A stretch of 64,000 bases of DNA. Source: Hyphomicrobiales bacterium. Its GTDB lineage: Bacteria > Pseudomonadota > Alphaproteobacteria > Rhizobiales > CBDCVD01. The notes beneath the pieces are model-generated. The model saw only the letters and a program-made list of their open reading frames with translations, was not told where the DNA came from and did no database searches. The DNA lies in NCBI GenBank assembly GCA_965222955.1, contig OZ244974.1, forward strand, positions 2,077,940 through 2,141,939. The letters run 5' to 3'. The position numbers and the translations under genes are program-made. Shown piece by piece: positions 1 to 64,000 of this stretch (within the stretch, counting starts at the first letter, position 1; every line of letters starts with the position of its first letter).

Positions 1-31
1 AGGCGAAACCGAGGGACTTTTCACATTCAAC
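1..31. repeat. Terminal segment of a long-TIR (C/D-type) element, cut by the window edge
   Basis: aggcgaaaccgagggacttttcacattcaac matches the element ends at 1807..1837, 59770..59800 and 49360..49388, and in reverse complement those at 45994.. and 47987.. Confidence 0.75.
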
Positions 32-33
32 GA

Positions 34-501
34 TTACGATTTTGGCGGATCGCTTTCTTCGCGCACCCTCGCCATGCCAGCGCGCGCCAACTGATCGGCG
101 CGCTCGTTGCCCGGATTACCCGCGTGTCCCTTCACCCAGCGCCAGTCGATTTCGTGCCGGCTCACCACCGCATCGAGTTGCTGCCACAGATCCTGATTCT
201 TGACGGGCTTTTTCGCCGACGTGCGCCAGCCGTTTTCTTTCCAGCGCCGCATCCATTCGGTGATGCCGCCCTTGATGTAGCGCGAATCGGTGAAGAGAAC
301 CACACGACTCGGCCTCTTCAGCGCCGCCAGCGCACTAATGGCGGCCATGAGTTCCATACGGTTATTCGTCGTATCCAGGGCACCACCCTTTAACTCCTTG
401 ATGCGCTTTCCGTATTCCAGCCGCGCCCCCCAGCCGCCCGGCCCCGGATTGCCCGAACAGGCCCCGTCGGTATAGATTACGATCGCTCCCCCATCGCTCA
501 T
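34..501 (-). CDS. rnhA: Ribonuclease HI
   Basis: 155 aa; motifs [23 protein letters not shown] and [13 protein letters not shown]; its ATG overlaps the ispH stop (ATGA). Confidence 0.93.
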
Positions 502-1496
502 ACGGAACCCACTCCTTGCGCCGCCGCATCGTTCTCACCTTGCGCCATCGTCTGGCGTAGGGGGCGCGGCAGGTTAAAGGCGATATCCTCCGTTGCGGTC
601 AGGACCGTCTCGACGCGCACGTGAAACCGGGAACGAAACGCAGCGATGATCTCCTCCACCAGCGCATCGGGCGCCGAAGCGCCGGCGGTAAGCCCCAGGG
701 TCTTCACAGCCGAAAAGTCGTCCCAGCAAATATCATCGGCGCGCTGGACAAGGGCGGAGAACCGACAACCGGCGCGCGCCGCCACTTCCACCAGGCGCTG
801 GGAATTCGACGAGTTCGGCGCCCCCACGACCACCATCGCATCGCAACCGGCAACAGCGGCCTTGACCGCCGCCTGGCGGTTGGTGGTGGCATAGCAGATG
901 TCGTCCTTGTGCGGCGCCTTGATGGTGGGAAAGCGCGCCTGAAGCATCGCCACGATTTCGGCCGTATCGTCGACGGAAAGTGTTGTCTGCGTAATATAGG
1001 CAAGGGGCTTGCCGCCTGTTGGACTGAAGCGTTGCGCATCGGCCAGGGTTTCGATCAGATGCACCGCGCCAGGGGGCAGTTGCCCCATCGTGCCGATCAC
1101 TTCGGGATGGCCGGCATGGCCGATAAGAATGATTTCGAAACCGCGTGCGTGATTGCGCTCGGCCTGCTTGTGAACCTTCGAGACCAGAGGACAGGTGGCA
1201 TCGAGAACGAACAAATCGCGCGTGCGGGCGTCCTCGGGAACCGCTTTTGGCACCCCATGGGCGGAGAACACCACTGGCGCGCTCGTGGGCGGAATTTCGT
1301 CGAGCTCCTCGACGAACACAGCCCCCTTGGCGCGCAGACTATCCACAACGAATTTATTGTGAACAATCTCGTGGCGCACATACACCGGTGGCCCGTACAG
1401 TTCCAGCGCCTGTTCGACAATCTGGATGGCGCGGTCGACACCGGCACAAAAGCCGCGCGGCGCGCATAACTTGATGAGGAGGTCCGGCTTGTTCAT
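498..1496 (-). CDS. ispH: 4-hydroxy-3-methylbut-2-enyl diphosphate reductase
   Basis: IspH/LytB-like sequence ([31 protein letters not shown]). Start moved to the ATG at MNKPDL because the 36 upstream codons of the ORF run into a repeat element. Confidence 0.93.
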
Positions 1497-1526
1497 GAAT
1501 CGATTCCACCCACCGCTTATGGTCGC

Positions 1527-1837
1527 GTTGATCATGAAGAAAAGTGCCTCGCTCCGCTTGCGTGTACTTTTCTTCATTTGAAACAATGAGAAAACAACGC
1601 TCAAAAAGGCACGGCACTTTGTTTTCCCTTGGCCTCATTGCAAGGTTTTAGCGCATTTGCGCATACTATCAAGGGGCTTTGCGTTTGACTCCCGGCCCGG
1701 ATTAGAGCGTGTCAGGTCTTATCAGCACAATACACACGCCAGCGTGTACAAAAAGCCAATGCCGCTGATATGATTTGTCCTTATTTATTGGGAAAAAGTA
1801 CACCGAGGCGAAGCCGAGGGACCTTTTCACATTCAAC
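1527..1837. mobile_element. Long-TIR MITE-like element (about 300 bp) with a B-type core carrying a solo A-type terminus
   Basis: Left end gttgatcatgaagaaaagtgcctcgctccgcttgcgtgtacttttcttcatttgaaacaatgagaaaac and the reverse complement of the right end align at roughly 70 percent. Homologous copies lie at 45994..46599, 49177..49388 and 59504..59800. Confidence 0.8.
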
Positions 1838-1868
1838 TAAATCATTTTCATGGGAGGCCTGGCAAGCA

Positions 1869-3824
<1,956 letters not shown>

Positions 3825-3842
3825 TACAAACACCAACCCGCT

Positions 3843-4415: not shown

Positions 4416-4634
4416 AGTTTTTTAACCCTGTAAATCATACATCGAATGCGGCGTTGCTTTCGTACCGGTGAACCGTTACACGCCAACCGCGCCGATGGAA
4501 AAAGTGTAATGGCTCCTGATACCCGCTTATACAACCGAACATACAGGGAAAATGTATCGAAAATCTTTAATACCGGCAGCTTTGCTTCTACCGACCGGCT
4601 GGCCTTTGGAGTTTTTGAAAGGCTTGCGGGGTGT

Positions 4635-5576: not shown

Positions 5577-5643
5577 GAGGAACCCTTTCTTGAATCGCCT
5601 GGTCGATTATGGGCGCTTCCGACCACATTTCAACCGCCCGGCG

Positions 5644-5898: not shown

Positions 5899-5927
5899 AT
5901 CTCCCGATAAAACGTTGTACCCTGAAC

Positions 5928-6059
5928 GTGATATTTCAGCAGGTTGTTCCCAAAACGGGCAAATCTGAAGCGATACCTCTTGCGCCCTTGCCGCCAGGGA
6001 GGTCATAACCGGACCATCCATCTGACGGGTTTTTTGAGAACAACTTATTGAAATTACAC
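5928..6059. mobile_element. E-type palindromic element
   Basis: TIR-like ends gtgatatttcagcaggttgttccc / gagaacaacttattgaaattacac. The core matches copies at 38537.., 31299.., 46187.. and 60125.. Confidence 0.75.
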
Positions 6060-6061
6060 AA

Positions 6062-6233
6062 CTAGAGCATGTCAGGTCTTAATAGAAGCAATTCTGTTTC
6101 TCGATTGGCGAGGCGGACCACGCCCAAGGCGATCGAAGAGCGATGTTTATCCATCTCTCGAGAGCGGCTTGGGCGTGGGCGTCCGCCAATCGAGAAACGA
6201 AAATTGCTTCACTTAAAAACTGAAAGGCTCTAA
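6062..6233. mobile_element. A-type palindromic element, 172-bp form
   Basis: ctagagcatgtcaggtcttaatagaagcaatt...aattgcttcacttaaaaactgaaaggctcta. The roughly 80-bp arms are inverted repeats around ctctcgagag. By-eye alignment to the copy at 39758..39931 shows close similarity. The right terminus supplies the TAG stop of the S49 peptidase gene. Confidence 0.85.
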
Positions 6234-7108
6234 AGACCGAAGCGGGCCCACAGAGCGCGCTCGTGCAAGGCCGTCATAACCTCTCCGGTCATTTCTCGCG
6301 CCACAGGCGCGCGCGCCGCCGCACCGGTGAAGCGGCCGAGAAACGAGCGCGACGGGCTGACATCCCTGATCTTGACCTTGTCACCATATTTTTCCCGCAT
6401 CACATCGCGCAAAACGCCCAGCCGGTCAACCAGACCGAACTCCATGCCGCGCCGTGCGGTCCAGAAGGCGCCGGAAAAAAGCGTTTCCTCATCGGCCTTC
6501 AGAGCCGCTCCGCGGCATTGGCGTACATGTTCGCAAAAATCGGTGTAGATATCGCCTTGCAGCGCCATCAAATGATTTACGTCCTCCGGCTTTTGTGGTG
6601 AAAACGGATCGAGCATCGCTTTTTTATCCCCCGTGTGGTGCAGGCGGCGCTCGATGCCGATCTTGTCGATCAGTGCCTCAAAGCCAAAGCCCGCATGGAC
6701 CACGCCGATAGAACCGACGATAGAAGCGGGATCGGCGATGATCTCATCGCCAGCGCAGGCAATCCAGTAGCCGCCCGAGGCGGCGACATCCTCGACAAAC
6801 ACATACACCCGCTTGTCATGCTCCCTGGCCAGTGCGCGAATACGGCGAAAGATCAGATTCGATTGTACCGGCGATCCGCCCGGCGAATTGATCGACAGGG
6901 CCACCGCCCTGGCGCGCATTTTAAAGGCCTTTTCCAAGGCGCCCGCCACCGCCTTTAGGTTCAGTGCGCTGCGCATGGCGCTGCGCTCGGCAATCACCCC
7001 TGACAAGCGCACATGCGCGATAACGGCCCGGCGATCGCGCCATAGTTTGGGCTGGTGTTTGCCCCACATGCGTGAAACGTTCCTGAGCGACGATTTCAGT
7101 TCTACCAT
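6230..7108 (-). CDS. S49 family peptidase (SppA/SohB-like)
   Basis: 292 aa; motifs SINSPGGSPV and DVAASGGYWIACAGDEIIADPASIVGSIGV, typical of S49 signal-peptide-peptidase-like proteins. Confidence 0.85.
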   Translation of the reverse strand: MVELKSSLRNVSRMWGKHQPKLWRDRRAVIAHVRLSGVIAERSAMRSALNLKAVAGALEKAFKMRARAVALSINSPGGSPVQSNLIFRRIRALAREHDKRVYVFVEDVAASGGYWIACAGDEIIADPASIVGSIGVVHAGFGFEALIDKIGIERRLHHTGDKKAMLDPFSPQKPEDVNHLMALQGDIYTDFCEHVRQCRGAALKADEETLFSGAFWTARRGMEFGLVDRLGVLRDVMREKYGDKVKIRDVSPSRSFLGRFTGAAARAPVAREMTGEVMTALHERALWARFGL

Positions 7109-7179
7109 GGTATTCCTGTTCTTCAGTTCAGAGCCATTTGCATTGGTAACAGCCGTCGGCCGCAGGCCGACAACGCCTT

Positions 7180-7283
7180 AATACCAGAGGGTTTTGCGTT
7201 TTGACTCCTGGCTCAGATTAAAACTGTTGTCTTATCAGCACGATACACAAGCCAGCGCGTACAAAAAGCCAATACCGCTGGTA
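7180..7283. mobile_element. B-type element (about 105 bp)
   Basis: ataccagagggttttgcgttttgactcc...cgtacaaaaagccaataccgctggta. Same family as 11679.., 14877.., 15014.., 18565.., 46086.. and 59631.. Confidence 0.8.
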
Positions 7284-10849: not shown

Positions 10850-10861
10850 GACCATAGCCTG

Positions 10862-11678: not shown

Positions 11679-11784
11679 TATACCAGCGGTATTGGCGTTT
11701 TGTACACGCTGACTTGTGTATAGTGTTGATAAAACAACGGTTTTAAGCCAAGTCAGGAGTCAAACGCAAAGCCCCTTGGTATTA
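11679..11784. mobile_element. B-type element
   Basis: tataccagcggtattggcgttttgtacacgctgac...caggagtcaaacgcaaagccccttggtatta. Confidence 0.8.
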
Positions 11785-11964
11785 TGATTTTTCAACAGGT
11801 TGTTCCTGATAAACCCATCAGGTACAGGCGGCCATTCACCTGATCACTAGAGCGTGTCAGGTAAATGGCCCGGTATGGCCTTGCGGCTCGCCATCCGCGG
11901 CAAGGGCCGCAAGAGAGGTAACGTCAGATTTGCCCGTCCCGGGAACAACCTGTTACAATTATAC
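11785..11964. mobile_element. E-type element carrying an about 40-bp insertion with an A-type terminus
   Basis: Ends tttttcaacaggttgttcc / gggaacaacctgttacaattatac. Relative to the copy at 38537.. it has the extra segment tacaggcggccattcacctgatcactagagcgtgtcagg. Ends 2 nt from the rarA TAG stop. Confidence 0.75.
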
Positions 11965-14876: not shown

Positions 14877-15119
14877 ATACCAGCGGTATTGGCTTTTTGT
14901 ACACGCTGACAAGTGTATCGTGCTGACAAGACAACGGTTTTGATCCGGGCCAGGAGTCAAACGCAAGGCCCTTTGGTATTACACGATTGAACTACCCGCT
15001 CCTGTAGAGCGTGTAATACCAAGGGGCTTCGCGTTTGACTCCTGGCCCGGATCAAAACCGTTGTCTTATCAGCACGATACACTTATCAGCGTGTACAAAA
15101 CGCCAATACCGCTGGTATA
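14877..15119. repeat. Two B-type elements head to head (about 240-bp palindrome)
   Basis: 14877..14981 and 15014..15119 are reverse complements of each other, separated by about 30 nt that include gtagagcgtgt (an A-type terminus remnant). Confidence 0.85.
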
Positions 15120-15228
15120 ACTTCAACAGGTTGTTCTCGAAAAACCCATCGGGTGCTGCTGGCGGCAAGGGCGAAAAAGGTATCACTTCCGGTTTGCCTG
15201 TCGCAGGAACAAACTGTTGAACGATCAC
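15120..15228. mobile_element. E-type element, short variant
   Basis: cttcaacaggttgttctc...caggaacaaactgttgaacgatcac. The terminal gatcac contains the lipB TGA stop (15225..15227). Confidence 0.7.
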
Positions 15229-17558: not shown

Positions 17559-17680
17559 AAATGAAAACCTCTTGTCTTCGCTTCATCGAAGGTATTTGTT
17601 GCCTCGCAAACCGACTGTAATACTTCTCCGCCCCTTTTTGGATTTCGCCGCCCCCCAATGAGAGAAGCCCCGAAAGGCGT

Positions 17681-17738
17681 CATTCCGGGCCATTCACCTG
17701 CACCTATGGGTTTCGTAAGAATACCGTTGAGGTTACAC
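17681..17738. repeat. E-type half element
   Basis: cattccgggccattcacctgcacctatgggtttcgtaagaataccgttgaggttacac resembles the right half of E copies. Confidence 0.55.
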
Positions 17739-17747
17739 ATCCGGGGC

Positions 17748-18104
17748 CTAGAGCGTGTCAGGTCTTAATAGAAGCAATTTTCGTTTCTCGATTGGCGAGG
17801 CGATACCCAGGCTCAAGGCGATCGAAGAGCGATGGCGACCCATCTCTCGAGAGCGGCCTGGGCGTGGGCGTCCGCCAATCGGCAAAGCCGAAGGGACGGG
17901 CGCTTTTGCACCAATATGAACCTTAAGTCTCTTGAAAACAGCCCCACTATATCCTGCGAGACTTAAGGTTCATATTAGATCAGCTTGGCGTTAGCTGTAC
18001 CCATTTTGCCAAGGGTAATGCTAACGCCATAAAGCTGATCGCCCTGAAATCTATAGCAAAATCGCTCCGTCAGAATGATTCTATTAAGACCTGACACGCT
18101 CTAG
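17748..18104. mobile_element. A-type composite element, 357-bp form (arms plus hairpin module H1 plus nested F module)
   Basis: Perfect 24-bp TIR ctagagcgtgtcaggtcttaatag / ctattaagacctgacacgctctag. H1 hairpin at about 17914..17975 (18-bp stem atatgaaccttaagtctc). F module at about 17976..18055. The right terminus overlaps the rpsK TAG stop. Confidence 0.9.
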
Positions 18105-18545: not shown

Positions 18546-18770
18546 CTAGAGCGTGTCATGTCTTATACCAGCGGTATAACCGTTTTGCACACGCTGACTT
18601 GTGTGTCGTGCTGATAAAACAGCGGTTGTAAACCGGGTCAAGAGTCAAACGCAAAGCCCGCTGGTATTAATAGAACCATTCTGACCGGCAAAACTGACGT
18701 TCCACCTCTTACGGCCGTGACCGCAGATTGCCGCAACAAGGTCATACCGGGCCATTCATGGGCCCCGACA
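18546..18770. mobile_element. A-type terminus interrupted by a nested B-type element, followed by E-like sequence
   Basis: ctagagcgtgtcatgtctta | taccagcggtat...(B, 18565..18668)...ctggtat | taatagaaccattctgac, i.e. B inserted inside the A-type TIR. Confidence 0.75.
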
Positions 18771-18939: not shown

Positions 18940-19009
18940 CCAGAGCGTGTCAGGTCTTAACAGAAGCAATTTTCGTTTCTCGATTGGCGAGGCGATACCC
19001 ACGCTCTAG
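18940..19009. mobile_element. A-type element, internally deleted 70-bp form
   Basis: ccagagcgtgtcaggtcttaacagaagcaattttcgtttctcgattggcgaggcgatacccacgctctag. The right terminus overlaps the rpsM TAG stop. Confidence 0.8.
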
Positions 19010-19374
19010 GTCTTTTTGCCGGCGATGGGTTTTGCCGGCCCTTTGCGGGTGCGCGCGTTGGTATGGGTGCGCTGACCGCGCACGGGAAGCCCACGGCGAT
19101 GGCGCAATCCGCGATAGCATCCCAAATCCATCAAACGCTTGATATTCATTGCCACTTCGCGGCGCAAATCCCCTTCCACGATATAGTCGCGATCAATGAC
19201 CTCACGGATCTGGATAATCTCCGCATCCGAGAGTTCGTTGACCCGGCGCGCCTGGGGAATGTTGATTTTCTCGCAAATCTCCCGTGCCTTGGCCGGACCA
19301 ATTCCATGAATATACCGCAGACCGATCTCGACCCGCTTCGTTGTCGGAATATTGACCCCAGCAATTCGCGCCAT
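19006..19374 (-). CDS. rpsM: 30S ribosomal protein S13
   Basis: 122 aa; [10 protein letters not shown]...[24 protein letters not shown]. Confidence 0.97.
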
Positions 19375-19501
19375 TCTGGCTCTCCTTTAAGCGTCTTGTC
19401 CTGCATGACCGCGCCAGCACCACCGCCCGCCGCATGTCACCGTGCTCACACCGACACGTACAAACCGCGTAACCGAATCCGTTGTTCTGATTTTGCCAAG
19501 C

Positions 19502-19534
19502 AAAAAACGGCGCCACCCCTCACGGATCGCACCG
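19502..19534 (-). terminator. Candidate intrinsic terminator/attenuator between adk and rpsM
   Basis: The minus strand reads CGGUGC...GGCGCCG (6-bp stem including one G-U pair) followed by UUUUUUG, about 120 nt downstream of the adk stop. Confidence 0.35.
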
Positions 19535-19654
19535 GCAAACATACCTAACACTTGTCTCTCTTATCGTATTCCGCGCACCCACGTCAATCATTTTATCCCC
19601 GTTAACGGCCGATATCACCTTTGCCCGATTGATTGTTCCGCCCGTTATCCGCCC

Positions 19655-26041: not shown

Positions 26042-26075
26042 CTAGAGCGTGTCAGATCTTAATCAGCGGTATCTA
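26042..26075. repeat. A-type terminus fragment between rpsQ and rplN
   Basis: ctagagcgtgtcagatcttaatcagcggtatc. Confidence 0.6.
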
Positions 26076-31298: not shown

Positions 31299-31436
31299 GT
31301 GATCTTTAAGCAGGTGTATCCAGGACCGGCAAACCTGAAGTGATCTTTTTGCGGCCTTTGCCACCACAAAGACCATACCGGGCCATCCATCTGCACCCGA
31401 TCAGTTTACCACGAACCACCTGTTGCAATGACACCG
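31299..31436. mobile_element. E-type element between rpsJ and rplC
   Basis: gtgatctttaagcaggtgtatcc...cacgaaccacctgttgcaatgacaccg. CTAG occurs on both flanks (31293 and the rpsJ stop at 31437). Confidence 0.7.
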
Positions 31437-31745
31437 CTAGAGCTTGATCTCCACATCGACACCGGCGGCAAGATCGAGTTTCATCAACGCATCGACCGTC
31501 TGCGGCGTTGGATCCACGATATCCAAAAGGCGCTTATGGGTGCGAATTTCGAATTGCTCGCGACTTTTCTTGTCCACGTGCGGCGAGCGGTTTACGGTGA
31601 ATTTCTCGATACGCGTCGGCAGCGGAATGGGACCGCGAACCTGCGCCCCCGTACGCTTTGCCGTCGAGACAATCTCGCGCGTCGACGTATCCAGAACACG
31701 ATGATCAAAGGCCTTTAAACGAATGCGTATGTTTTGACGATCCAT
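31437..31745 (-). CDS. rpsJ: 30S ribosomal protein S10
   Basis: 102 aa; [14 protein letters not shown]...[22 protein letters not shown]. Confidence 0.97.
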
Positions 31746-37430: not shown

Positions 37431-37724
37431 CCTGACCTCATCTTAAACTGGTTCGACACGCATTTTAAACCTTGTTTCGACACTCGCAACATCGTCCCCG
37501 GGGCCACACTACCGCCTCTGCGGTTCAATACGTCACGCCCGAACGCCCGGCTGCCAATGCGGGACATTCCCCTGCCCCGCTTGCCTCCCGCTTGAGCGCC
37601 TGCCCCGACACGCCAACTATCCATCGCATGACCGTACGCCCAAACGGCACGCCCGATCATGCTCCGGAAATATTGTATAAGTGTTGCCGGCAGCGTCTAG
37701 AGATTCATAGGTGACCATACATAT

Positions 37725-37776
37725 TGTGCGCGCACATACCCGTAAACGTGTATCTGGCCCGTAAACGTGCATCTGG
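37725..37776. promoter_or_regulatory. 12-bp perfect palindrome plus tandem 19-mer pair in the rpsL / YHS-gene divergent region
   Basis: tgtgcgcgcaca (37725..37736), then cccgtaaacgtgtatctgg | cccgtaaacgtgcatctgg (37739..37776, one mismatch). Confidence 0.4.
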
Positions 37777-38003
37777 CGAACCCACCTGTGTGAGCCCATG
37801 TTGTACGCGCGCATGGCACAGCGAACTCTACGGCCTGGCCGAGAATTGTGTCATGTCCTACAGGCTCTGCTCCAAAGCGTCAAGCGAATTCGCCGCTGCG
37901 GCGTTAATTTTTCGCCAATCAACCACATTTTTGTCTGCATTAAGGGTTTTATGACAGACTCATGGGTTTCCCATGGGTTTAAATCCGATACGAGGTAGAA
38001 ATT

Positions 38004-38534: not shown

Positions 38535-38536
38535 GT

Positions 38537-38681
38537 GGATAACGTCAACAGGTTGTCCTCAAAAAAGCAATGATCAGGTAAATGACCCGGTATGGCCTTG
38601 CGGCTCGCCATCTGCGGCAAGGGCCGCAAGAGGGATAACGTCAGATTTGCCCGTTTTGGGAACAACCTGCTGAAAGGTCAC
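38537..38681. mobile_element. E-type element, full-length reference copy
   Basis: caacaggttgtcc...ggcccggtatggccttgcggctcgccatctgcggcaagggccgcaagag...gggaacaacctgctgaaaggtcac. Confidence 0.8.
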
Positions 38682-39757: not shown

Positions 39758-39931
39758 TTAGAGCGTGTCAGGTCTTAAGTGAAGCAATTTTCGTTTCCCG
39801 ATTGGCGAGGCGATACCCAGGCTCAAGGCGTTCGAAGAGCGATGGCGACCCATCTCTCGAGAGCGGCCTGGGCGTGGGCGCCCGCCAATCGGGAAACAGA
39901 ATTGCTTCACTTAAGAACTTAAAGGCTCTAG
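39758..39931. mobile_element. A-type palindromic element, 174-bp form, between the M24 peptidase gene and dppB-like gene
   Basis: ttagagcgtgtcaggtcttaagtgaagcaatt...aattgcttcacttaagaacttaaaggctctag. The right terminus overlaps the TAG stop of the peptidase gene. Confidence 0.85.
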
Positions 39932-41079
39932 CCAACAAACATAATCTCGCGCGTAAAGTCCGTTAATGCGGTTGCCCCCTCGGGCGTGATCAGCACATCG
40001 TCCTCGATACGCACACCGAACCCCCCCAGTTTATACAGCCCCGGCTCAATGGTAAAGACCATCCCCGCTTCCAGGGGTGTATGATTGCCGCGCATGATGT
40101 AAGGCTCCTCGTGCACCTCACGCCCCAGACCGTGACCGGTCCTGGTGCGCATATAAGAAGCAAACGGCGAGCGCTCCAGAACAGCACTGACCGCATCATC
40201 AAGATCATGGGCGCTCACCCCCGCCGCCGCCAGATCGCGTCCGCACCGGTTGGCGCGCAGAACCGTATCGTAAAAGGCGCGTTGTTCATCGCCGCATGTG
40301 CGCACGAACACCGTGCGCGTGATGTCGGCGCACACCCCGTCATGACTCACGCCGAAGTCCAGCAACAGGGCATCCCCCGGGCGAACGGCGTAATCGGGAC
40401 GGGCGGAGGCATGAGGACGAGCAGAATTGTCGCCAGCGGCCACAATGGGCGAAAAGGCGAAATCCTGGGCCCCATGGGCGAACAGGCTTTGCTTGAGCAG
40501 CGCCTCAATCTCGGTCTCAAACATCCCGACACACACGCCCGCCAGGGTATCGGCAAGGGCGCCCTGGCAAATGCCGATGGCGCGTTCCATGGCGGCGATC
40601 TCGCCGGCACTCTTGCGCAGACGCGGGCCAGATATGGCCCTTTGGGCATCGACAAGCTCCAGATCGTCAAAGGCGCGCGCCAGGGCATGGTGCACAAACA
40701 CCCGCATCTGCTGCCCCTCAACGCCCAGACGGCGCATGGGCCGATGCGCTGCAAGGGCGGCAAAAGCACCATCATAGCCGTCCTGATCGCGCCAGTCGAA
40801 AACCGCGCCCTCGAAACCCAAAAGGGCAAACGAGGCCAGTTCCAGATTGGGCACCACCGCCGCCGGCAGCCCCTCAACGGGGATAACAATCACCAAAGGC
40901 CGTTCGTTTTGCAAAAACGTCTTGCCGTAAAGGCGGGCAAAATTCGCCCCCGGCACCAGCGCCACGCCATCCAGGGCCTGATCGCGGGCAATGCGGCGAA
41001 ATACATCATAACGATCCGAACGCCCGGGGCGCTCAGGATGTATTGGCGCATCGCTCTGATGAGAACCCGCCGCAGCCAT
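39928..41079 (-). CDS. M24 family metallopeptidase (Xaa-Pro peptidase-like)
   Basis: 383 aa; metal-ligand context (LLLDFG, DITRT, HGLGREVHEEP, FTIEPGLY, GVRIEDDVLIT). Confidence 0.88.
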   Translation of the reverse strand: MAAAGSHQSDAPIHPERPGRSDRYDVFRRIARDQALDGVALVPGANFARLYGKTFLQNERPLVIVIPVEGLPAAVVPNLELASFALLGFEGAVFDWRDQDGYDGAFAALAAHRPMRRLGVEGQQMRVFVHHALARAFDDLELVDAQRAISGPRLRKSAGEIAAMERAIGICQGALADTLAGVCVGMFETEIEALLKQSLFAHGAQDFAFSPIVAAGDNSARPHASARPDYAVRPGDALLLDFGVSHDGVCADITRTVFVRTCGDEQRAFYDTVLRANRCGRDLAAAGVSAHDLDDAVSAVLERSPFASYMRTRTGHGLGREVHEEPYIMRGNHTPLEAGMVFTIEPGLYKLGGFGVRIEDDVLITPEGATALTDFTREIMFVG

Positions 41080-41117: not shown

Positions 41118-41179
41118 GCTAGAGCGTGTCAGTTTTTAACTGAAGCAATTCTGTTTCTGTTAAGACCTGACACGCTCCA
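41118..41179. mobile_element. A-type element, minimal 62-bp form
   Basis: ctagagcgtgtcagtttttaactgaagcaattctgtttctgttaagacctgacacgctccag. Confidence 0.8.
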
Positions 41180-43010: not shown

Positions 43011-43137
43011 TGAGATCTTCCAGCGGGTAGTTTTTCAAGGCGGCAGGTCCAACGTTCCCCCCTCTTGCGGCCGTGGCCGCGAGAAGGCCGGTTCGGGCCG
43101 TCCATCTGATAGTCCAGAGCGTGTCCTGTCTTAATAG
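43011..43137. repeat. E-like half element followed by a solo A-type terminus
   Basis: gagatcttccagcgggtag...ggccgtccatctgatag, then ccagagcgtgtcctgtcttaatag (43114..43137). The ispB TAA stop (43131..43133) lies inside this terminus. Confidence 0.65.
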
Positions 43138-44596: not shown

Positions 44597-44629
44597 GTAC
44601 GATCTTGCAGCACGCTGCGCCTGGAACGG

Positions 44630-44746
44630 ACAAAGACGGACAAACCTGAAGGTACATCTCTTGCGTCCTTGCCGTCAGCAGGGCCGGCTCGGGCCATTCA
44701 TCTGCACCCGGTGGCGTTTTCGGGAACAACCTGTTGCAATTGCACA
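44630..44746. repeat. E-type partial element
   Basis: caaacctgaaggtacatctcttgcg...gggccattcatctgcaccc...cgggaacaacctgttgcaattgcac. Confidence 0.65.
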
Positions 44747-44781
44747 CCCAAGCCACGTACTGCCAAATTTGTGGGGCGATC

Positions 44782-45970: not shown

Positions 45971-45993
45971 GTTTACTCTTTCCTGTCTGATCT

Positions 45994-46599
45994 GTTGAAT
46001 GTGAAAAAGTCCCTCGGCTTCGCCTCGGTCTACTTTTCCCAATAAAATAAGGACAAATCAGTCCCTGGAGCGGCCCGGCGAACTGATACCAGCGGTATTG
46101 GCCTTTTGTACGCGCTGACTTGTGTATCGTGCTGATAAGACAACGGTTGTAAACCAGGTCAGGAGTCAAACGCAAAGCCCCTGGTTGTGATCTTTCAGCA
46201 GGTTGTTCCCGGGACAGGCAAACCGGACGTGACACCGCTTAACACTCTTGCCGCCAGAAAGGCCATACCGGGCCATTCATCTGATCATCGCTTTTTTTCG
46301 ATTTCTCCAGCGCTGTCAAGGGTTTAGGAACCGCTGAAAGCGGCGCGAAGCGCCCTTGACAGCGCTGGAGAAATCGAACACCTCCAATGATCAGATGGAT
46401 GGCCAGCAGCACCCGACGGGGATTTCGAGAACAACCTGCTGACAGGCCACACCCGGGCTTTACGCGCAAATGCGCCAAAACCTTGCAATAAGCCCAAGCG
46501 GAAACAAAGCGCCGCGCCTTCTCGGTCTCAGTTTTCTCATTGTTTTAAATGAAGAAAAGTCCACACAAGCGGAGCAAAGGACTTTTCTTCACGATCAAC
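45994..46599. mobile_element. Long-TIR element (reverse orientation) with nested B, E and G elements
   Basis: gttgaatgtgaaaaagtccctcggcttcgcctcgg...(B 46086..46185)(E 46187..46450 containing G 46281..46393)...acttttcttcacgatcaac. Confidence 0.8.
46281..46393. repeat. G-type palindrome with perfect 25-bp arms
   Basis: tcgatttctccagcgctgtcaaggg (46298..46322) and cccttgacagcgctggagaaatcga (46353..46377), with a 30-nt spacer holding small inner hairpins. Flanked by ctgatcat / atgatcag of the host E element. Confidence 0.85.
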
Positions 46600-47850: not shown

Positions 47851-47986
47851 TCCGGCGTTCATACTGCCGCAACTGCGCCCTTGACTCAACACCTGCAAAC
47901 GGGGGAGTTAACGGTGTCGTTTGAGCAGCTCCCTCTCAAGGCGGCAGGTCTGAAGTCAGGATACGTGCGGCCATTACCGTCAGGGA

Positions 47987-48186
47987 GTTGAATGGGAAAA
48001 AGTCCCCTGGCTTCGCCTCGGTGTACTTTTTCCCCAATCAACATAAGGACAAATCAATCCCTGGGTGTGTAATTTCAGCAGATTGTTCCCAAAACAGGCA
48101 AACCGGAAGTGATACCTCTTGTGCCGTTGCCGCCAGGGAGGCCATACCGGGACAGGAGTTGAACGCAAAAGCCCCCTGGTATTAAC
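47987..48186. repeat. Composite of a long-TIR end, an E-type part and a B-type fragment
   Basis: gttgaatgggaaaaagtcccctggcttcgcctcgg..., then gtgtaatttcagcagattgttccc..., then ggacaggagttgaacgcaaaagccccctggtatta. Confidence 0.7.
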
Positions 48187-49176: not shown

Positions 49177-49388
49177 GTTGATCGTGAAGAAAGGTGTTTC
49201 GCTCCGCTCCATGTATTTTTCTTCATTTAAAACAATGAGAAAGTAAAGCTCAAGAAGGCGCGGCGCTTTGTTTTCGCCTGGGCTTATTGCAAGGTTTTGG
49301 CGCATTTGCGCGCAGTACCTTGCAACTTCCGATCATGATTGGTCACCATGGATGTCAAATCGTACCGAGGGACTTTTTCACATTCAAC
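49177..49388. mobile_element. Long-TIR element, short form without a B core
   Basis: gttgatcgtgaagaaaggtgtttcgctccgctcc...cgtaccgagggactttttcacattcaac; ends 3 nt from the nlpD-like stop. Confidence 0.75.
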
Positions 49389-49391
49389 TCA

Positions 49392-52523: not shown

Positions 52524-52550
52524 ACCATGCCACTCCTTATGTTTGTTGTG

Positions 52551-54763: not shown

Positions 54764-54817
54764 GAGGGGGCTTTCTTCAGATGGGCTTACCAAGAGCAAC
54801 CTGTTGAAATTACACAA

Positions 54818-55174
54818 CTAGAGCGTGTCAGGTCTTAATAGAACCATTCTGACGGAGCGATTTTGCGACAAGATGAACTTTAAGTCTCGCAGGATATCGT
54901 GGGGCTATTTGCAAGAGACTTAAGGTTCCTATTAGATCAGCCTGGCTTTAGCTGTACCCGTTTTGCCAGGGGTAAAGCTAACGCCATAAAGCAGATCGCC
55001 CTGAAATCCATAGCAAAAGCGCCCGTCCCTTCGGGTTTGCCGATTGGCGGACGCCCACGCTCAAACCGATCTCATGAGATGGGTCGCCATCGCTCTTTGA
55101 TCGCCTTGAGCCCGGGTATCGCCTCGCCAATCGAGAAACGAGAATTGCTTCTATTAAGACCTGACACGCTCTAG
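54818..55174. mobile_element. A-type composite element, 357-bp form, inverted relative to 17748..18104, between tatB and tatC
   Basis: Same perfect 24-bp TIRs. The arms are about 90 percent or more identical by eye to the reverse complement of 17748..18104. F module at about 54933..55012. The right terminus overlaps the tatB TAG stop. Confidence 0.9.
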
Positions 55175-55969: not shown

Positions 55970-56105
55970 TCCCTTGTCACTTTCCTTTGTCGACTCTCAT
56001 ACGTTCATCCGGCTATCATTGGCCCGAATTATGGCAAAATAGTTATCCCATCGCAACCTGGGAGCTGTCGCACCGCGAATCGCGGCGAAATCCGCGCCGA
56101 TTACC

Positions 56106-56170
56106 GCAGCAAGGCCATACCGAACCATCTATCTGATGGGTTTTTCGAGAACACCCTGCTGAAGTTACAC
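56106..56170. repeat. E-type partial element
   Basis: gcagcaaggccataccgaaccatctatctgatgggtttttcgagaacaccctgctgaagttacac. Confidence 0.6.
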
Positions 56171-56188
56171 AACGATAGCCCCTTCGGA

Positions 56189-57548: not shown

Positions 57549-57636
57549 TGTCATCTTTCATTGCCCCAGGGTGGCCGGTTCGGGCCATCCAGTCTCACCC
57601 GATACGTTTTTCAAGAACAACCTGTTGAAATCGCAC
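57549..57636. repeat. E-type partial element
   Basis: gtcatctttcattgcc...ggccggttcgggccatccag...tttttcaagaacaacctgttgaaatcgcac. Confidence 0.6.
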
Positions 57637-57641
57637 GACCC

Positions 57642-58850: not shown

Positions 58851-59028
58851 AGCGTCGGGCGTTTAAATTGCACATCTGGAGCGTGGGTGTCGACGCGGCC
58901 CGCGGCCCTGCGGACATGAGAGGCCCCGACAAGAGACAAGACCGGACAAGAAACGGGTGGCGCGATGTTGCGGGCGCTCCGTATTCTTCATTTCAGCATG
59001 GCAATACCGCCCCTGAACCGGAGAAGAC

Positions 59029-59499: not shown

Positions 59500-59503
59500 T
59501 AAA

Positions 59504-59800
59504 GTTGATCGCGAAGAAAAGTCCTTCGCTCCGCTTGCGTGTACTTTTCTTCATTTAAAACAATGAGAAAACAACGCTCGAGAAGGCGTGGCGCTTCGCT
59601 TTGTTGCCAGGTTTTGGTACATTTGCGCATAATACCAGGGGACTTTGCGTTTGACTCCTGGCCTGGTTTAAACCGTTGTCTTATCAGTACGATACACACG
59701 TCAGCATGTACAAAACGCCAATACCGCTGGTATGATTTGTCCTTATTTTATTGGGAACAAGTAGACCGAGGCGAAGCCGGAGGACTTCTTTACATTCAAC
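59504..59800. mobile_element. Long-TIR element with nested B-type core (59631..59733)
   Basis: gttgatcgcgaagaaaagtccttcgctccgcttgcgtgtacttttcttc...ccgaggcgaagccggaggacttctttacattcaac. Confidence 0.8.
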
Positions 59801-59841
59801 GATACAGCGGCGCGCCCCTGGCCCCGTTCGGGCTGCGAAAA

Positions 59842-59916
59842 TGGTGGGCGCGGCTGGGATTGAACCAGCGACCCCTACGATGTCAACGTAGTGCTCTCCC
59901 GCTGAGCTACGCGCCC
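59842..59916 (-). tRNA. tRNA-Val (anticodon GAC), CCA encoded
   Basis: Reverse complement GGGCGCGTAGCTCAGCGGGAGAGCACTACGTTGACATCGTAGGGGTCGCTGGTTCAATCCCAGCCGCGCCCACCA folds by hand into a 7/4/5/5 cloverleaf with anticodon loop TTGACAT. Confidence 0.92.
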
Positions 59917-60124
59917 GCCAAGTCGACGCAGCGGTTACACCATGAAACCCGTGGCCGCGTCAAGTTATCCGTGCGATTATTTGCCTGATGGCAGGCTCTG
60001 GCCATCGCGCGCCGGATGCGATAGCATGTAGGGAATGAATTTAACATTTGCGTCCCGACTGCTTGCCGGGCACGTTTTCAAATATCACATTCAAGGTTCA
60101 ACCGGAACGTTATCGTGGCCCGTT

Positions 60125-60262
60125 GTGATCTTTCGGCAGGTCGTTCTTGAAAAAACCATCAGATGGATGGCCCGATATGGCCTTGCTGCAACAATCTGTG
60201 GCCGTGGCGACAAGAGGTGTCACTTCAGGTTTATCCGTCGTTACACAACCTGCTGAAAGATC
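60125..60262. mobile_element. E-type element
   Basis: gtgatctttcggcaggtcgttcttg...ggcccgatatggccttgc...cgttacacaacctgctgaaagatcc. Confidence 0.75.
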
Positions 60263-60265
60263 CTA

Positions 60266-60335
60266 TCCAGATCAGCACGCGTTTAGCGTTACCCATTTGC
60301 CAGGGATAAAGCGAAACGCATAAAGCTGATCGCCC
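60266..60335. mobile_element. F-type element, solo copy
   Basis: ccagatcagcacgcgtttagcgttacccatttgccagggataaagcgaaacgcataaagctgatcgcc matches the F modules inside the two 357-bp A-type composites. Confidence 0.7.
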
Positions 60336-60368
60336 CGGCCGCAAGGCCCCCGGACGGACGCTCTCCCT

Positions 60369-62366
60369 ATGAACCCGCCAGCATTTTCGCACCTGTTTTC
60401 GCCTATCACCGTCGGCCACAAGACGCTTAAACATCGGCTCAATATGGGCGCCCATACGGCCAATATGTCACAGGCACGGCTGCCGTCGGCGCGCCACAAG
60501 GGCTACTATCTGGAACGCGCCATGGGCGGTGCCGCCATGATTGTGGTGGAGCCGGTACCGGTGCACCGCTCTGGAGTGTTCAAACGCGGCTGCTTTCTCG
60601 CCGAAAGCGATGCCATCATTGAGCCCTTTCGCGATATTGTCGATGCCTGTCACGCGTACCAGACCGTGATGGTGCAGCAACTGCTGCATATCGGCGCCCA
60701 TGGCGATTACGACAATTCCTATCACGCGAACTGGTCGCCGTCGGGCTTTGCCTCCTATCACGATTCGGACGGCAGCCACGGGATGAGCGGCGCCCAGATT
60801 GAGGAAGTCATCGACGCGTTTGTCGCCGCCGCCCTACGGGCCCAACAGGCGCATTTTGACGGCGTGGAGATTTTCGCCGCCTATAACGCCCTGGTGGACC
60901 AGTTCTGGTCGCCTCTGACCAATACCCGCAACGACGAATGGGGCGGCGATTTTACCCGGCGGATGCGCTTTAGCGCCGAAATCCTGACGCGCATCCGCAA
61001 GGCTTGCGGCGATCGCTTTATTATCGGACTTGCGGTTACCGGCGATGATCTGGTACCGGGAAGCCTCGACAATGCCGCAATTGCCGCAATCGCCGGCTGG
61101 CACGACAGCCGCCGGCTGATGGACTACATCAGCGTCGGAACGGGAAGTTATTTTGATTTCTCACGGCTTATACCCACCTTTCAGCATGCCGACAAACTTG
61201 GCGCCTCCCTGGCCGCTGGCGTCAAGGCGGCGGTGATGCATGCCCGCGTTCAGGCCGAGAGCCATATTCGCACGCCGGAAAATGCCGACTATGTTATTGC
61301 CTCGGGCGATGCGGATATGGTCTCGATCGTGCGCGGCCAGATCGCCGACCCACATATGGCGAACAAGGCGCAAGACGGGCGCGTGGAGGATATTCGCCCG
61401 TGCATATCCTGCAATCAGATGTGCTGGGGACGGCGCGGACGCGACTATTACATTTCGTGTCTGGTGAACCCTTCGGCAGGGCACGAGTTTCAATGGGGCG
61501 GCGACCGGTTTCATCCCATGGAGAACCCGCGCAAGGTTCTGGTTGTCGGCGGTGGCCCGGCGGGCCTTGAGGCGGCACGGGTGGCGGCCGAGCGCGGCGC
61601 GCGCGTGACCCTTGCCGAGGCCTCCGATAAACTGGGGGGCCAGTTTCGTCTCGCCGGCCTGCAGCCGCGACGGGGACAAATTCTCGATCTTGTCGGCTGG
61701 TACGAAGCGCAGTTGCGAAACCTGCAAGTCAATGTCCTGTATAACGCGCCCATGGACGCCGACGATGTGATCGGTTTTAAGGCCGATGCGGTGGTGCTTG
61801 CCACGGGATCGCTTCCCGCCGATACCGGTTTTCAGCGCGCCCTGGCCCATGTGCCGCGTCTTGCGGGCCTGGAGCGCGGCAACTGGGCCTCCGTTGAGGA
61901 CATTATCGGCGGCGCCAAACGCGCTGGCGAACACGTCCTCCTGATCGATGACGGGGGCAACTGGCGCGGCGGCGGAACGGCGTGGTACATGGCGGAGCGG
62001 GGCCATCGGGTCACCCTCGTTACCCCCGATGCCATGGCCGCCAGGGAATTGCAGCGAAGCGCCGCAGACTTTGCTCTGCACAAAACCTTCAAGCACCTTG
62101 GTGTTGAGACCATCGTTCATTCGGCTATCGGCGAGTGGCATGGCGATGGCGCAACATTGATCAATATTCTTGACAACAGCACCCGCGATATCGCCGCCGA
62201 TACGCTGGTTCTGGCGACGCCGAACGTCTCGGTGCGCTGGCTCGGTGATGCCCTTGATGCCTGGCACGGCAGGGCGCCGCAAATGTTCCAGATCGGCGAT
62301 GGTGTGGCGCCGCGCGGCGCACCGGCCGCCATTTATGAAGGGCGCACAACCGCCCTGGCACTGTAA
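60369..62366 (+). CDS. Old-Yellow-Enzyme-type NADH:flavin oxidoreductase fused to an FAD/NAD(P)-binding domain (2,4-dienoyl-CoA reductase-like)
   Basis: 665 aa; N-terminal OYE TIM-barrel pattern, 4Fe-4S Cys cluster CISCNQMCWG...CLVNP, then Rossmann motif VLVVGGGPAGLEAA. Confidence 0.85.
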   Translation: MNPPAFSHLFSPITVGHKTLKHRLNMGAHTANMSQARLPSARHKGYYLERAMGGAAMIVVEPVPVHRSGVFKRGCFLAESDAIIEPFRDIVDACHAYQTVMVQQLLHIGAHGDYDNSYHANWSPSGFASYHDSDGSHGMSGAQIEEVIDAFVAAALRAQQAHFDGVEIFAAYNALVDQFWSPLTNTRNDEWGGDFTRRMRFSAEILTRIRKACGDRFIIGLAVTGDDLVPGSLDNAAIAAIAGWHDSRRLMDYISVGTGSYFDFSRLIPTFQHADKLGASLAAGVKAAVMHARVQAESHIRTPENADYVIASGDADMVSIVRGQIADPHMANKAQDGRVEDIRPCISCNQMCWGRRGRDYYISCLVNPSAGHEFQWGGDRFHPMENPRKVLVVGGGPAGLEAARVAAERGARVTLAEASDKLGGQFRLAGLQPRRGQILDLVGWYEAQLRNLQVNVLYNAPMDADDVIGFKADAVVLATGSLPADTGFQRALAHVPRLAGLERGNWASVEDIIGGAKRAGEHVLLIDDGGNWRGGGTAWYMAERGHRVTLVTPDAMAARELQRSAADFALHKTFKHLGVETIVHSAIGEWHGDGATLINILDNSTRDIAADTLVLATPNVSVRWLGDALDAWHGRAPQMFQIGDGVAPRGAPAAIYEGRTTALAL

Positions 62367-62419
62367 CACCAGCGGCGCTTGTATCGCAGGATACGCACCA
62401 CAATTAGCTGAATGTGAAC

Positions 62420-62440
62420 AAGACGTTTAACACGCTCTAG
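62420..62440. repeat. A-type terminus remnant overlapping a permease stop codon
   Basis: aagacgtttaacacgctctag; the terminal cta is the TAG stop of CDS 62437..63117. Confidence 0.55.
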
Positions 62441-63117
62441 CGAAGCACCATCATCGCGTCCGAATCTTCGGCGCCGAGCCTGGTCTGCACGATACGGGTC
62501 AGCCGCAAAAATACGGTCGATATCAGCCAGTACAGCAGGGCAATCGTCGCAAAGGTCTCTACCGGGGTGAACGTGCGCCCGTTGATGTCATGGGCGGCAT
62601 AGGTCAGTTCGGCCACGGTAATCATCGATAGCAGCGACGATTCCTTGATCATCGTCAAGGCGATATTGGTGCCGGGCGGAAAGACATAGCGATACAACTG
62701 GGGAAAAATGACCCGGCGCATATAAAATCCGTACTTCAAGCCGAGCGCCTCACAGGCATCGAACTGACCCCTGGGAACCGATTCAACACCGCCGCGAAAG
62801 ATCTCGGCAAAATACGCCCCGCCATAGATAGACAGGCAGAAAAAGCCCGTCGTCAGTCCCGCCAGACGAATACCGTAAAAGGGTAGCGCATAAAATACCA
62901 TGAATATCAGGATCAACAACGGTACATTGCGGACGATTTCAATATACGCGATCGCACTCCAGCGCAGAAACCGCCTGGTGGAAATGCGCATCAGACAAAC
63001 GAAGACGCCGATAAAAATCCCGATGGGAATGGAAACCGCGGATATCAGCAATGTATTGCCGATACCGCTGAAAAGAATATCGCGATTGCTCCATATCGCC
63101 ATGTAGTCAAAGTTCAT
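62437..63117 (-). CDS. Amino acid ABC transporter permease (His/Glu/Gln/Arg/opine 3-TM family)
   Basis: 226 aa; N-terminal region typical of the family and EAA-like loop (GQFDACEALGL). Confidence 0.88.
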   Translation of the reverse strand: MNFDYMAIWSNRDILFSGIGNTLLISAVSIPIGIFIGVFVCLMRISTRRFLRWSAIAYIEIVRNVPLLILIFMVFYALPFYGIRLAGLTTGFFCLSIYGGAYFAEIFRGGVESVPRGQFDACEALGLKYGFYMRRVIFPQLYRYVFPPGTNIALTMIKESSLLSMITVAELTYAAHDINGRTFTPVETFATIALLYWLISTVFLRLTRIVQTRLGAEDSDAMMVLR

Positions 63118-63143
63118 CGGTCGTTGTCCTGGATGTGCAATGT

Positions 63144-63177
63144 CAGAATGGTTCTACTAAAACATGGCACCCTCTAG
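63144..63177. repeat. Degenerate A-type right arm overlapping a permease stop codon
   Basis: cagaatggttctactaaaacatggcaccctctag versus cagaatgattctattaagacctgacacgctctag at 18071..18104; the terminal cta is the TAG stop of CDS 63174..63836. Confidence 0.6.
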
Positions 63178-63836
63178 AGGCGATACTTCATCGAACGCCG
63201 CTGCAAAAACTCGCCAAACTGGCTGATTGAAAAGCAGATGACGAAATAGATGAGCGCCGCCAGTCCCAGAACTTCGACCGGGCGAAACGTCTCATTGTAA
63301 AGCATCTGCGAGGCGCGGGTCAGTTCAACCAGCGTGATCGTCGACAAAAGCGGCGTGATCTTGATCACCATGGTGAACTCGTTCACCAGCAGCGGAATAA
63401 CACTGTAATAGACCTGAGGCAGAATGACCTTAAACCAGACCTTGTATTTGGATAGCCCAAGCGCTTGCGCTGCCTCCCATTGCCCGATAGGGATGCGGCT
63501 CAGGCCACCGCGCAGGATTTCCGCAACATAGGCGCCGCTGTTGAAGCCGACGGCCATGATGCCGGCCGTAAACGGGCCGATATTAACGCCGATCAGCGGC
63601 GCGAGCGCATAATAGAAAACCAGGATTTGCACCAGTGCCGGCGTGCCGCGAATAAAGCTGCCATAAACGCCAACGAATTTTCGCAGCAACCAGTATCGGC
63701 TATTGCGCATAAAGAGCAATCCGGTGCCGACAACCAGCCCGACCGCGCAAGCGATCAGCCCGACGAAAATCGTATAAAGCGCCCCCCAAAACAGGGGGCC
63801 CGCCTTCGGGATGATCTCAAGAAACTGAAGGTCCAT
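63174..63836 (-). CDS. Amino acid ABC transporter permease (His/Glu/Gln/Arg/opine 3-TM family)
   Basis: 220 aa; paralogous to 62437..63117; EAA-like loop (GQWEAAQALGLS). Confidence 0.88.
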   Translation of the reverse strand: MDLQFLEIIPKAGPLFWGALYTIFVGLIACAVGLVVGTGLLFMRNSRYWLLRKFVGVYGSFIRGTPALVQILVFYYALAPLIGVNIGPFTAGIMAVGFNSGAYVAEILRGGLSRIPIGQWEAAQALGLSKYKVWFKVILPQVYYSVIPLLVNEFTMVIKITPLLSTITLVELTRASQMLYNETFRPVEVLGLAALIYFVICFSISQFGEFLQRRSMKYRL

Positions 63837-63957
63837 GCGCCAGGGCTTTCCACTTGATGGGCAGTGTCGCGTTGCATTCTGGCGGTTGCGCCGCGACCGC
63901 CTTGCCCCGCCAGCCCCTCATACGGCAAACAAGCGCCTGCCGTATGAGAAAATTGTA

Positions 63958-64000
63958 CGCCTTGAGCTTGGGTATCGCCTCGCCAATCGAGAAACGAAAA
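63958..64000. repeat. A-type arm fragment cut by the window edge
   Basis: ccttgagcttgggtatcgcctcgccaatcgagaaacgaaaa is the reverse complement of the A-type left arm (ttttcgtttctcgattggcgaggcgatacccaggctcaagg). Confidence 0.7.

Follow-up and report, generated by a model that had tools for sequence, protein, structure and literature searches.

Nested families of MITE-like repeats in the spacers of a housekeeping gene region in a Hyphomicrobiales bacterium

Positions 2,077,940 to 2,141,939 of contig OZ244974.1 from a Hyphomicrobiales bacterium (assembly GCA_965222955.1) form a 64,000-bp stretch, hereafter the window, in which the spacers between housekeeping genes are crowded with short repeats. 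What are these repeats, and how can they sit so close to such genes? An earlier note, made from the letters alone, had described at least six families of nested, palindromic elements resembling MITEs (miniature inverted-repeat transposable elements), and had argued for real transposition over conserved regulatory motifs. Our comparisons point the same way: the repeats are very probably MITEs, non-autonomous DNA transposons that here form a community of six or more families (A, B, C, E, J and P), with F as a module of A composites. DDE transposases whose genes lie in other parts of the genome would move them in trans. Those features of MITEs that can be tested appear to be present in A and B, and partly present in the other families.

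The window has a G+C content of 58%, and nearly all of its genes lie on the minus strand. Pfam matches identify, in gene-name equivalents, ispH, glyQ, a gene for a DegP-like protease, a lipB-like gene, rplQ, rpoA, rpsK, rpsM, adk, secY, serS, surE, pcm, tatABC and several ABC transporters, and a tRNA-Val is also present; the ribosomal-protein string and the putative genes for EF-Tu, EF-G, rpsG and rpsL were named not by Pfam but by position, by eye or by the orthologous gene calls of a relative introduced below. Self-BLAST and profile searches recovered about 45 full or partial copies of the seven repeat modules, in good agreement with the more than 35 that had been found by hand. The copies align significantly with one another, and self-BLAST of the window yields 32 repeat intervals (4,500 bp in all). 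Profile hidden Markov models built from the copies mark 4,627 bp as repeat, equal to 7.2% of the window; of the intergenic DNA, taken as the 11.3 kb outside the genes of a codon-usage map, they cover 39%. Many of the spacers longer than about 60 nt had been said to hold repeats; the figure is 21 of the 44 that measure at least 60 bp, rising to 14 of 16, by our own count, among those of at least 250 bp. Overlap with called genes amounts to only 260 bp, at the ends of open reading frames (ORFs). The elements measure 54–560 bp, and ORFs running across them have low coding scores. The termini quoted in the earlier note are recurrent, with 11 matches in the window to the A terminus at up to three mismatches and four to the E terminus, zero being expected in either case. 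All of the size forms that it had given are also present: 61, about 70, 172–174 and 357 bp for A, 103 bp plus the duplication for B, about 305–315 bp for C and about 135–150 bp for E. No repeat is detectable in two long spacers, at 37431–38003 (573 bp, upstream of rpsL) and 19375–19654 (280 bp, between rpsM and adk). In the relative the second of them is of nearly equal length (283 bp).

An empty and a filled site can be compared directly for A. The A tip is GAGCGTGTCAGG, or (TA)GAGCGTGTCAGGTCTTAATAG with the duplicated dinucleotide written out, and the terminal inverted repeats are about 24 bp long. In the related chromosome OZ245032.1 (hereafter the relative) a 1.3-kb segment is present twice, empty at locus L007, where the site reads GAGACCTA-TA-AGTC, and filled at locus L030, where it reads GAGACTTA-TA-[GAGCG...CGCTC]-TA-AGTC; A therefore duplicates TA. 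Since most of the 20 complete copies in our flank tabulation read C-TA-[element]-TA-G, CTAG is the preferred target. A 4-bp duplication of CTAG itself was rejected, because flanks of the type aTAG...CTAa and aTAG...CTAt, together with the empty site, fit TA only.

CTAG is rare in the window, at about a tenth of the number expected from base composition (23 observed versus 237 expected). Nine of the 23 sites, by our count, are TAG stops preceded by C, and a further eight lie within repeats or border them. In five genes the TAG stop falls inside the CTA(G) that ends an A element: those for an S49 peptidase and an M24 peptidase, rpsK, rpsM and tatB. The right-hand CTA of the 172-bp palindromic A at 6062–6233 (no strand assigned) is the stop of the S49 peptidase gene (6230–7108, minus strand), and the M24 peptidase gene stops inside a terminus of the 174-bp palindromic form at 39758–39931 (likewise without a strand). 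A fragment of about 70 bp at 18940–19010 (plus) ends at the rpsM stop codon (19006–19008). The two 357-bp composites, one between rpoA and rpsK (17748–18104, plus) and one that exactly fills the tatB–tatC spacer (54818–55174, minus), hold the rpsK and tatB stops, respectively, in a terminal CTAG.

We propose that A inserts at the CTAG of a TAG stop, and that the TA duplication would both restore the stop codon and leave a new CTAG on each side, which may draw further insertions and so build up chains and nests. The coincidence of the rare CTAG with TAG stops, and its regeneration, would explain why A lands exactly at gene 3' ends, why insertions are tolerated inside the rpsM-rpsK-rpoA and tatABC strings, of a type normally co-transcribed, and why E right ends are joined to A at 6062 and 54818 and insertion sequence (IS) copies lie at A ends in the relative. 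In the tips of older elements CTGG, CCAG or CCGG often stands in place of CTAG, a drift that very-short-patch-type repair might produce.

The 103-bp B element (ATACCAGCGGTATTGGC...CCCTTGGTAT) has eight copies in the window. Its tips are TACCAGCGG and CCTTGGTA, the latter degenerate in these two genomes, and its inverted repeats span about 9–17 bp. One copy, at 18565–18667, splits an A right-arm fragment (18546–18700, plus) with the junctions gtcTTA/TACCAGCGG...GCTGGTA/TTAatag, which duplicate the TTA of the intact A terminus gtcTTAatag; the insertion of B into an A terminus, described in the earlier note, is thus exact. More generally B duplicates TNA: the flanks of about 45 full-length copies, those within tandem arrays and composites excepted, fit TTA, TGA or TAA on both sides. 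Among the other copies in the window, those at 11680–11782 (plus) and 14877–14979 (plus) have a TTA duplication, and the second of them forms an inverted pair with the B at 15016–15118 (minus). A further 103-bp copy lies at 7181–7283 (minus), and three are nested in C elements (1667–1771, minus; 46086–46184, plus; 59632–59733, minus). Pairs of B termini 0.7–2.5 kb apart were considered as a possible IS and rejected, as they belong to separate B copies.

Nesting reaches three levels. The C elements are about 305–315 bp long, with the ends GTTGATCGTGAAGAAAAGT and ACTTTTTCACATTCAAC, imperfect inverted arms of about 70 bp and terminal inverted repeats put at about 20–70 bp. Three of the five copies carry B at an identical internal position: 1527–1841 (plus, with both termini, GTTGATCGTGAAGAAAAGT... 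and ...ACTTTTTCACATTCAAC), 45988–46599 (minus) and 59504–59806 (plus), the last adjoining the tRNA-Val (59842–59916). The second of these holds B, E and P, with P (46272–46403) inside E (46188–46453, plus) inside C, as the earlier note had seen under the name G for P. The two remaining copies are one with an internal deletion and without nested B (49177–49391, plus) and a solo right arm (47986–48055, minus). Some composites recur as units, for example C with B at its fixed position, a 270-bp A+F and an A+F+J.

F had been reported inside the 357-bp A form, and we find both F and J there, in two different arrangements. The copy at 17748 consists of an A left arm (17748–17886), the F hairpin (17908–17976), the J hairpin (17977–18044) and an A right arm (18056–18104), with J after F, whereas in the copy at 54818, read on the minus strand, the left arm (55174–55034) is followed by J (55001–54934, inverted relative to the other form), F (54935–54870) and the right arm (54851–54818). 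With the 270-bp A+F backbone, which is common in the relative, as the reference for both, the two 357-bp forms are independent products and not copies of a single composite, J having inserted independently at two positions and in two orientations in the A backbone. F (69 bp, two copies in the window) was found only within A- or B-containing composites, and although the earlier note had listed it as a family of its own, it is a module and not a demonstrated independent family.

The description of the repeats as palindromic applies to some families only. The 172-bp and 61-bp forms of A fold as single-stranded DNA far better than shuffled controls (z = -13.3 and -8.0), and P (a near-perfect hairpin of 132 bp with one copy in the window, no strand assigned), F and J (a 68-bp hairpin plus tail, three copies in the window) behave likewise (z = -12.5, -8.0 and -7.8), but B, E and C have no significant fold (z = +0.1, -0.3 and -0.8). 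None of the repeats has a match in Rfam 15 at the gathering threshold; the sole match in the window is the tRNA-Val.

To what extent do these families extend beyond the window? An exact scan for the A tip, with one genome per species, returned at least 29 separate 8-kb blocks, and all of the listed blocks come from a single other chromosome, the relative OZ245032.1 (a Hyphomicrobiales bacterium metagenome-assembled genome, 3,496,944 bp), without overlap with the window. The blocks sampled 232 kb of the relative, our wider searches covered 272 kb of it, and two of its loci (42 kb) are unbiased. RpoA is 93% identical between window and relative, all other RpoA matches being at or below 84%; P0002, which had looked like a close RpoA, was rejected as an artefact with a duplicated N-terminus. 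Local alignment gives 70% identity for SerS, 70% for SurE and 63% for Pcm, and the EF-G ortholog is below 90%; at such distances, cluster look-ups for ten proteins of the window returned singletons only. BLAST matches in orthologous coding DNA are 68–83% identical, and four-fold degenerate sites are 41% identical versus 31% expected at saturation. The relative is therefore real but distant, with synonymous sites near saturation.

Spacers at orthologous positions differ between the two genomes, in line with polymorphic insertion. The rpoA–rpsK spacer is 542 bp in the window, with half an E and the 357-bp A, and 195 bp with a B in the relative; the rpsK–rpsM spacer is 515 bp with A fragments, B and E in the former, and 250 bp with no detected repeat in the latter; and the tatB–tatC spacer, all of whose 353 bp are the 357-bp A form in the window, is 193 bp with a J fragment and a B in the relative. 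Downstream of the LysM/M23 gene there is a C in the window and a J fragment in the relative. No insertion site is common to both genomes in the two syntenic regions compared.

The families themselves are shared, in sharply different proportions. The 232 kb of the relative hold at least 45 A, at least 54 B and at least 32 J copies; E has 13 copies in the 64-kb window versus three in the 232 kb, and J three versus at least 32. Two genomes near synonymous saturation nevertheless carry A, F and J copies that are almost as similar between as within them: 88% between and 90–92% within for A (best cross-genome pair 93%), 90% and 89–95% for F (96%), and 83% and 83–84% for J (97%). As neutral non-coding DNA could not stay so similar, these elements either moved between the lineages fairly recently or descend from unusually constrained master copies, and horizontal exchange would seem to fit better than constrained masters. 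B copies fall into subfamilies particular to one genome or the other, 86% identical within a genome and 69% identical across the two.

A more far-reaching reading, which we offer tentatively and consider somewhat less probable than its negation, is that the two Hyphomicrobiales lineages draw on one common MITE pool, with recent and repeated horizontal exchange and a load of about 7% (about 40% of intergenic DNA) sustained by harmless targeting of CTAG at TAG stops. If true, this would be a MITE load at a level otherwise reported only for plants. The density estimate covers the 64-kb window plus the two unbiased loci of the relative (42 kb), where the load is roughly 3–7% depending on the method, and not a whole genome; the earlier note's view of the density as unusual is softened accordingly.

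Which enzyme could move these elements? The window contains no transposase by Pfam on 30 ORFs and by tblastn, as the earlier note had stated when it reasoned that any mobility would have to come in trans. A plausible supplier exists in the relative, in the form of a 1.48-kb element with four copies that are more than 98% identical and code for a protein of 448 aa in which Pfam recognises DDE_Tnp_1, DUF772 and DDE_Tnp_1_6 domains. The transposase reaches the threshold of the IS1182 family (NCBIfam NF033551, 322.8 and 325.8 bits versus a cut-off of 270), and among 574 ORFs from the relative's loci, compared all against all, it is the only multi-copy mobile gene. Its element has the tips CTAG/CAGTGTGTCGG and, in one copy, CTAG/AGCGTGTCGG, with ends CTAG/CAGTGTGTCGGGTTTAA... 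and ...CCGACACACTG/CTAG; the right end of one copy, ...CCGACACGCTCTAG, equals the A tip over 12 nt, and in three of the four copies the element adjoins an A terminus, at the CTAG of the latter. A homologue of the transposase with 88% identity, P0123, is encoded on the window's own 3,393,886-bp contig, outside the window. Given the A-like tips in the relative and this homologue, the IS1182-family enzyme appears to be the best candidate to mobilise A. The 272 kb sampled from the relative contain no IS630-type or short IS5-type transposase. Pairs of A termini 1.4–1.9 kb apart (loci L023 and L024) were rejected as transposase carriers; by eye, they enclose sigma/anti-sigma-like and MutY-like ORFs. 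At 2960–3513 of locus L025, a gene for a Y1 transposase of IS200/IS605 type (148 aa), preceded by a hairpin, adjoins and apparently truncates one end of an IS1182-family copy.

That Y1 gene bears on a different account of the palindromic repeats, in which J, F, P and the palindromic A forms would be repetitive extragenic palindromic (REP) or REPIN-like sequences, or IS200/IS605-type palindromes, mobilised in single-stranded form by a Y1 (HUH) transposase and not by a DDE enzyme. The near-perfect J, F and P hairpins with their low z-scores, and the presence of an IS200-like gene in the relative (L025, 3067–3513), would suit it. The encoded protein, however, scores 151.6 bits as IS200 but, at 39.9 bits, falls short of the cut-off of 80 for the model of REP-associated tyrosine transposases (RAYT); the gene has one copy in the 272 kb of the relative and none in the window; and A makes a TA duplication, whereas Y1 transposition makes none. 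We consider this account unlikely, and on present evidence the repeats are not REP/RAYT elements. Spread mainly by recombination, that is, by segmental duplication, gene conversion or slippage acting on a few ancestral repeats, is improbable to a greater degree. It would accommodate the tandem B arrays of the relative, which have a 103-bp period, the identical junctions between E right ends and A left ends at 6062 and 54818, and the 1.3-kb duplicated segment common to L007 and L030, but the sequences on either side of most copies are unrelated and begin exactly at the termini, with duplications of TA or TNA, and the empty and filled sites within that very segment differ by exactly the element plus TA. 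We give least credence of all to the view that selection conserves the repeats in place as functional motifs, for example as terminators or as sites of RNA processing or protein binding. Their location exactly at gene ends and within operons, and the strong folding of several of them, are what such motifs might show; on the other hand, the orthologous spacers of the relative hold different families or none, the duplications and nested insertions argue against conserved motifs, and B, E and C have neither a significant fold nor a match in Rfam. This explanation is largely refuted, and the earlier note's preference for real transposition is borne out by significant alignments, the abundance of the families outside the window, TA and TNA duplications and differing orthologous spacers, so that none of the findings by which it could have been refuted was made.

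Several observations weigh against a MITE community moved by DDE transposases, or limit how far it reaches. The case for mobility is a comparative one. A simple TNA-duplicating insertion leaves the B arrays unexplained, and a second process, e.g. slippage or unequal recombination, is needed for them. The flanks of C show no consistent duplication; among the families, flank comparison yields duplications for A and B only, and for E and J it gives approximate tips. The A and IS tips match at only about 12–14 of 17 nt, with a 1-nt offset, and, as three of the four IS copies abut A, A could be a preferred target of the IS and not its derivative. Finally, the 272 kb of the relative contain no autonomous partner for B, C, E, J or P. 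The B arrays are head-to-tail runs of two or three elements with an exact 103-bp period and the junction GGTAT/ATGCCAGC; they lie at L004 2474–2782, L009 1371–1576 and 2067–2375, L019 3532–3737 and L026 1630–1834.

With transposition of MITEs as the preferred explanation, the repeats can be set beside known systems. According to ISfinder descriptions, IS630 elements classically duplicate TA within CTAG, and some groups of the IS5 family typically make a 3-bp TNA duplication; A resembles IS630/Tc1-mariner elements in its TA duplication and CTAG preference, but the sampled 272 kb contain no DDE_3-type transposase, and the only multi-copy transposase there is of IS1182 type. Correia elements, too, duplicate TA. 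Rhizobium-specific intergenic mosaic elements (RIMEs) occur in the same bacterial order as our two genomes. Both these and the bacterial interspersed mosaic elements (BIMEs) of enterobacteria are similar to the present repeats in bringing several short repeat types together in variable intergenic mosaics, but BIMEs and REPs differ in lacking duplications and depending on RAYT, while RIMEs were compared by description only. The MITEs described in bacteria include Correia/NEMIS in Neisseria, Chunjie in Geobacter uraniireducens, QMITE in Coxiella and ERIC (PMC10969869). They share with the repeats of the window a short, non-coding, intergenic and multi-copy nature, terminal inverted repeats, target duplications, size variants that arise by internal deletion and presumed mobilisation in trans. 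One Chunjie copy lies within one of two phosphate-uptake operons (PMC10969869), which is comparable to the 357-bp A between tatB and tatC. The coexistence of six or more families, the three-level nesting and the 7% share of the sequence set the present repeats apart from known bacterial MITEs, and, according to a 2024 review, nothing near the plant MITE level of 8–10% has been reported in prokaryotes (PMC10969869). No sequence relationship to known MITEs emerged from a literature search for the terminal sequences, from Rfam or from plasmids, and there was no match in 72,556 plasmids or in viral contigs.

A literature search likewise found no described IS1182-derived MITE. IS1272, a Staphylococcus member of the IS1182 family, is reported to target inverted-repeat structures and to insert without a duplication (PMC5678879). 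The position of three of the four IS copies against an A terminus recalls that preference; unlike IS1272, the IS described here is flanked by CTAG on both sides, and A makes a TA duplication. Overall, the repeats are of a known kind, MITEs, in families previously undescribed, and what stands out is the load, the complexity and the pool common to two distant genomes. The small bacterial catalogue would gain these families and possibly the first IS1182-linked MITE, together with a simple rule for their pile-up at gene ends, in which a rare CTAG target coincides with TAG stops and is regenerated at each insertion. If the density holds genome-wide, the lineage would be among the most MITE-laden prokaryotes known, and would offer a natural system for studying element transfer between distant genomes and the tolerance of 350-bp hairpin-rich inserts in essential operons.

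B reaches further than these two genomes. It belongs to a broader MITE family, of which we found no description, because B-like elements of 99–101 bp with perfect 17-bp inverted repeats (TACCAGCGGTATTGGC) are present in six unrelated metagenome contigs (L065 7037–7139, L150 1232–1334, L126 1950–2052, L047 447–548, L048 2690–2790 and L130 832–930). Matching duplications, of TGA or TCA, flank five of these elements, and the four contigs that were checked have a G+C content of 55–61%. Four aligned elements have very divergent interiors apart from a shared subterminal motif, GAGTCAAA. The length is constant across the contigs (about 101 bp plus the duplication). The rest of the 120 metagenome matches to the 17-mer were set aside, being mostly single matches without a B-like element.

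The E elements, of about 135–150 bp with inverted ends of about 23 bp, account for 13–16 full or partial copies in the window; an initial split into separate families E, H, I and K was dropped, all four being one element. The copy at 5929–6060 (plus, about 135 bp) has the inverted ends TGTGATnTTTCAGCAGGTTGTTC and GAACAACCTGTTGAAATTACACA, and its right end abuts A at the CTAG at 6062; the E right end at 54773–54818 (plus) abuts the 357-bp A at the CTAG at 54818 in an identical junction. Other copies lie at 31300–31434 (plus, with CTAG at both flanks), 38536–38680 (minus), 44601–44751 (plus) and 60124–60262 (minus), together with a divergent one at 43014–43109 (plus) and one with an internal deletion at 15115–15226 (minus). 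The copy at 11788–11959 (minus) has a small insert with inverted repeats around a fragment of the A tip (CACGCTCTAG), and that at 46188–46453 is the one interrupted by the P hairpin. Two truncated copies (47920–47987 and 48072–48154, together 47920–48154, plus) stand on either side of the solo C arm. Right halves are found at 17677–17739, 56098–56171 and, as a variant, 57573–57641, and a fragment at 18682–18759 (all plus).

CTAGAGC follows the E right end in several copies (6040–6070, 54795–54825, 31430–31445); in two of them it opens a real A element, whereas one copy has no more of the A tip than these first 7 nt. A hotspot, a footprint or a portion of the terminus of E itself might account for it. 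The termini of the P hairpin (GCCATTCATCTGATCAT) match E-internal sequence (window 11830–11870 and 46255–46410; L018 1537–1670), and both genomes have an E::P composite with an identical internal position. The insert around an A-tip fragment in one E copy is a minimal version of it. P may have arisen from E or may target it.

The minor copies in the window comprise a free-standing J hairpin (60269–60335, plus), a 61-bp mini-A made up of two termini only (41119–41179, no strand assigned), a solo A-terminus-like sequence with three mismatches (26042–26065, plus), another that overlaps the 3' end of a polyprenyl synthetase gene (43114–43137, plus), and an internal A fragment cut by the window end (63954–64000, minus). 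Such repeats can mislead assembly, automatic gene calling and the binning of metagenome-assembled genomes, and several spurious ORFs cross elements here. Mechanically called ORFs of 54–91 codons traverse A elements at 17755–17919, 54899–55174, 6069–6233 and 39768–39938 and could be mis-annotated as genes, and the tatC and lytB ORFs, with their starts extended, reach into repeats.

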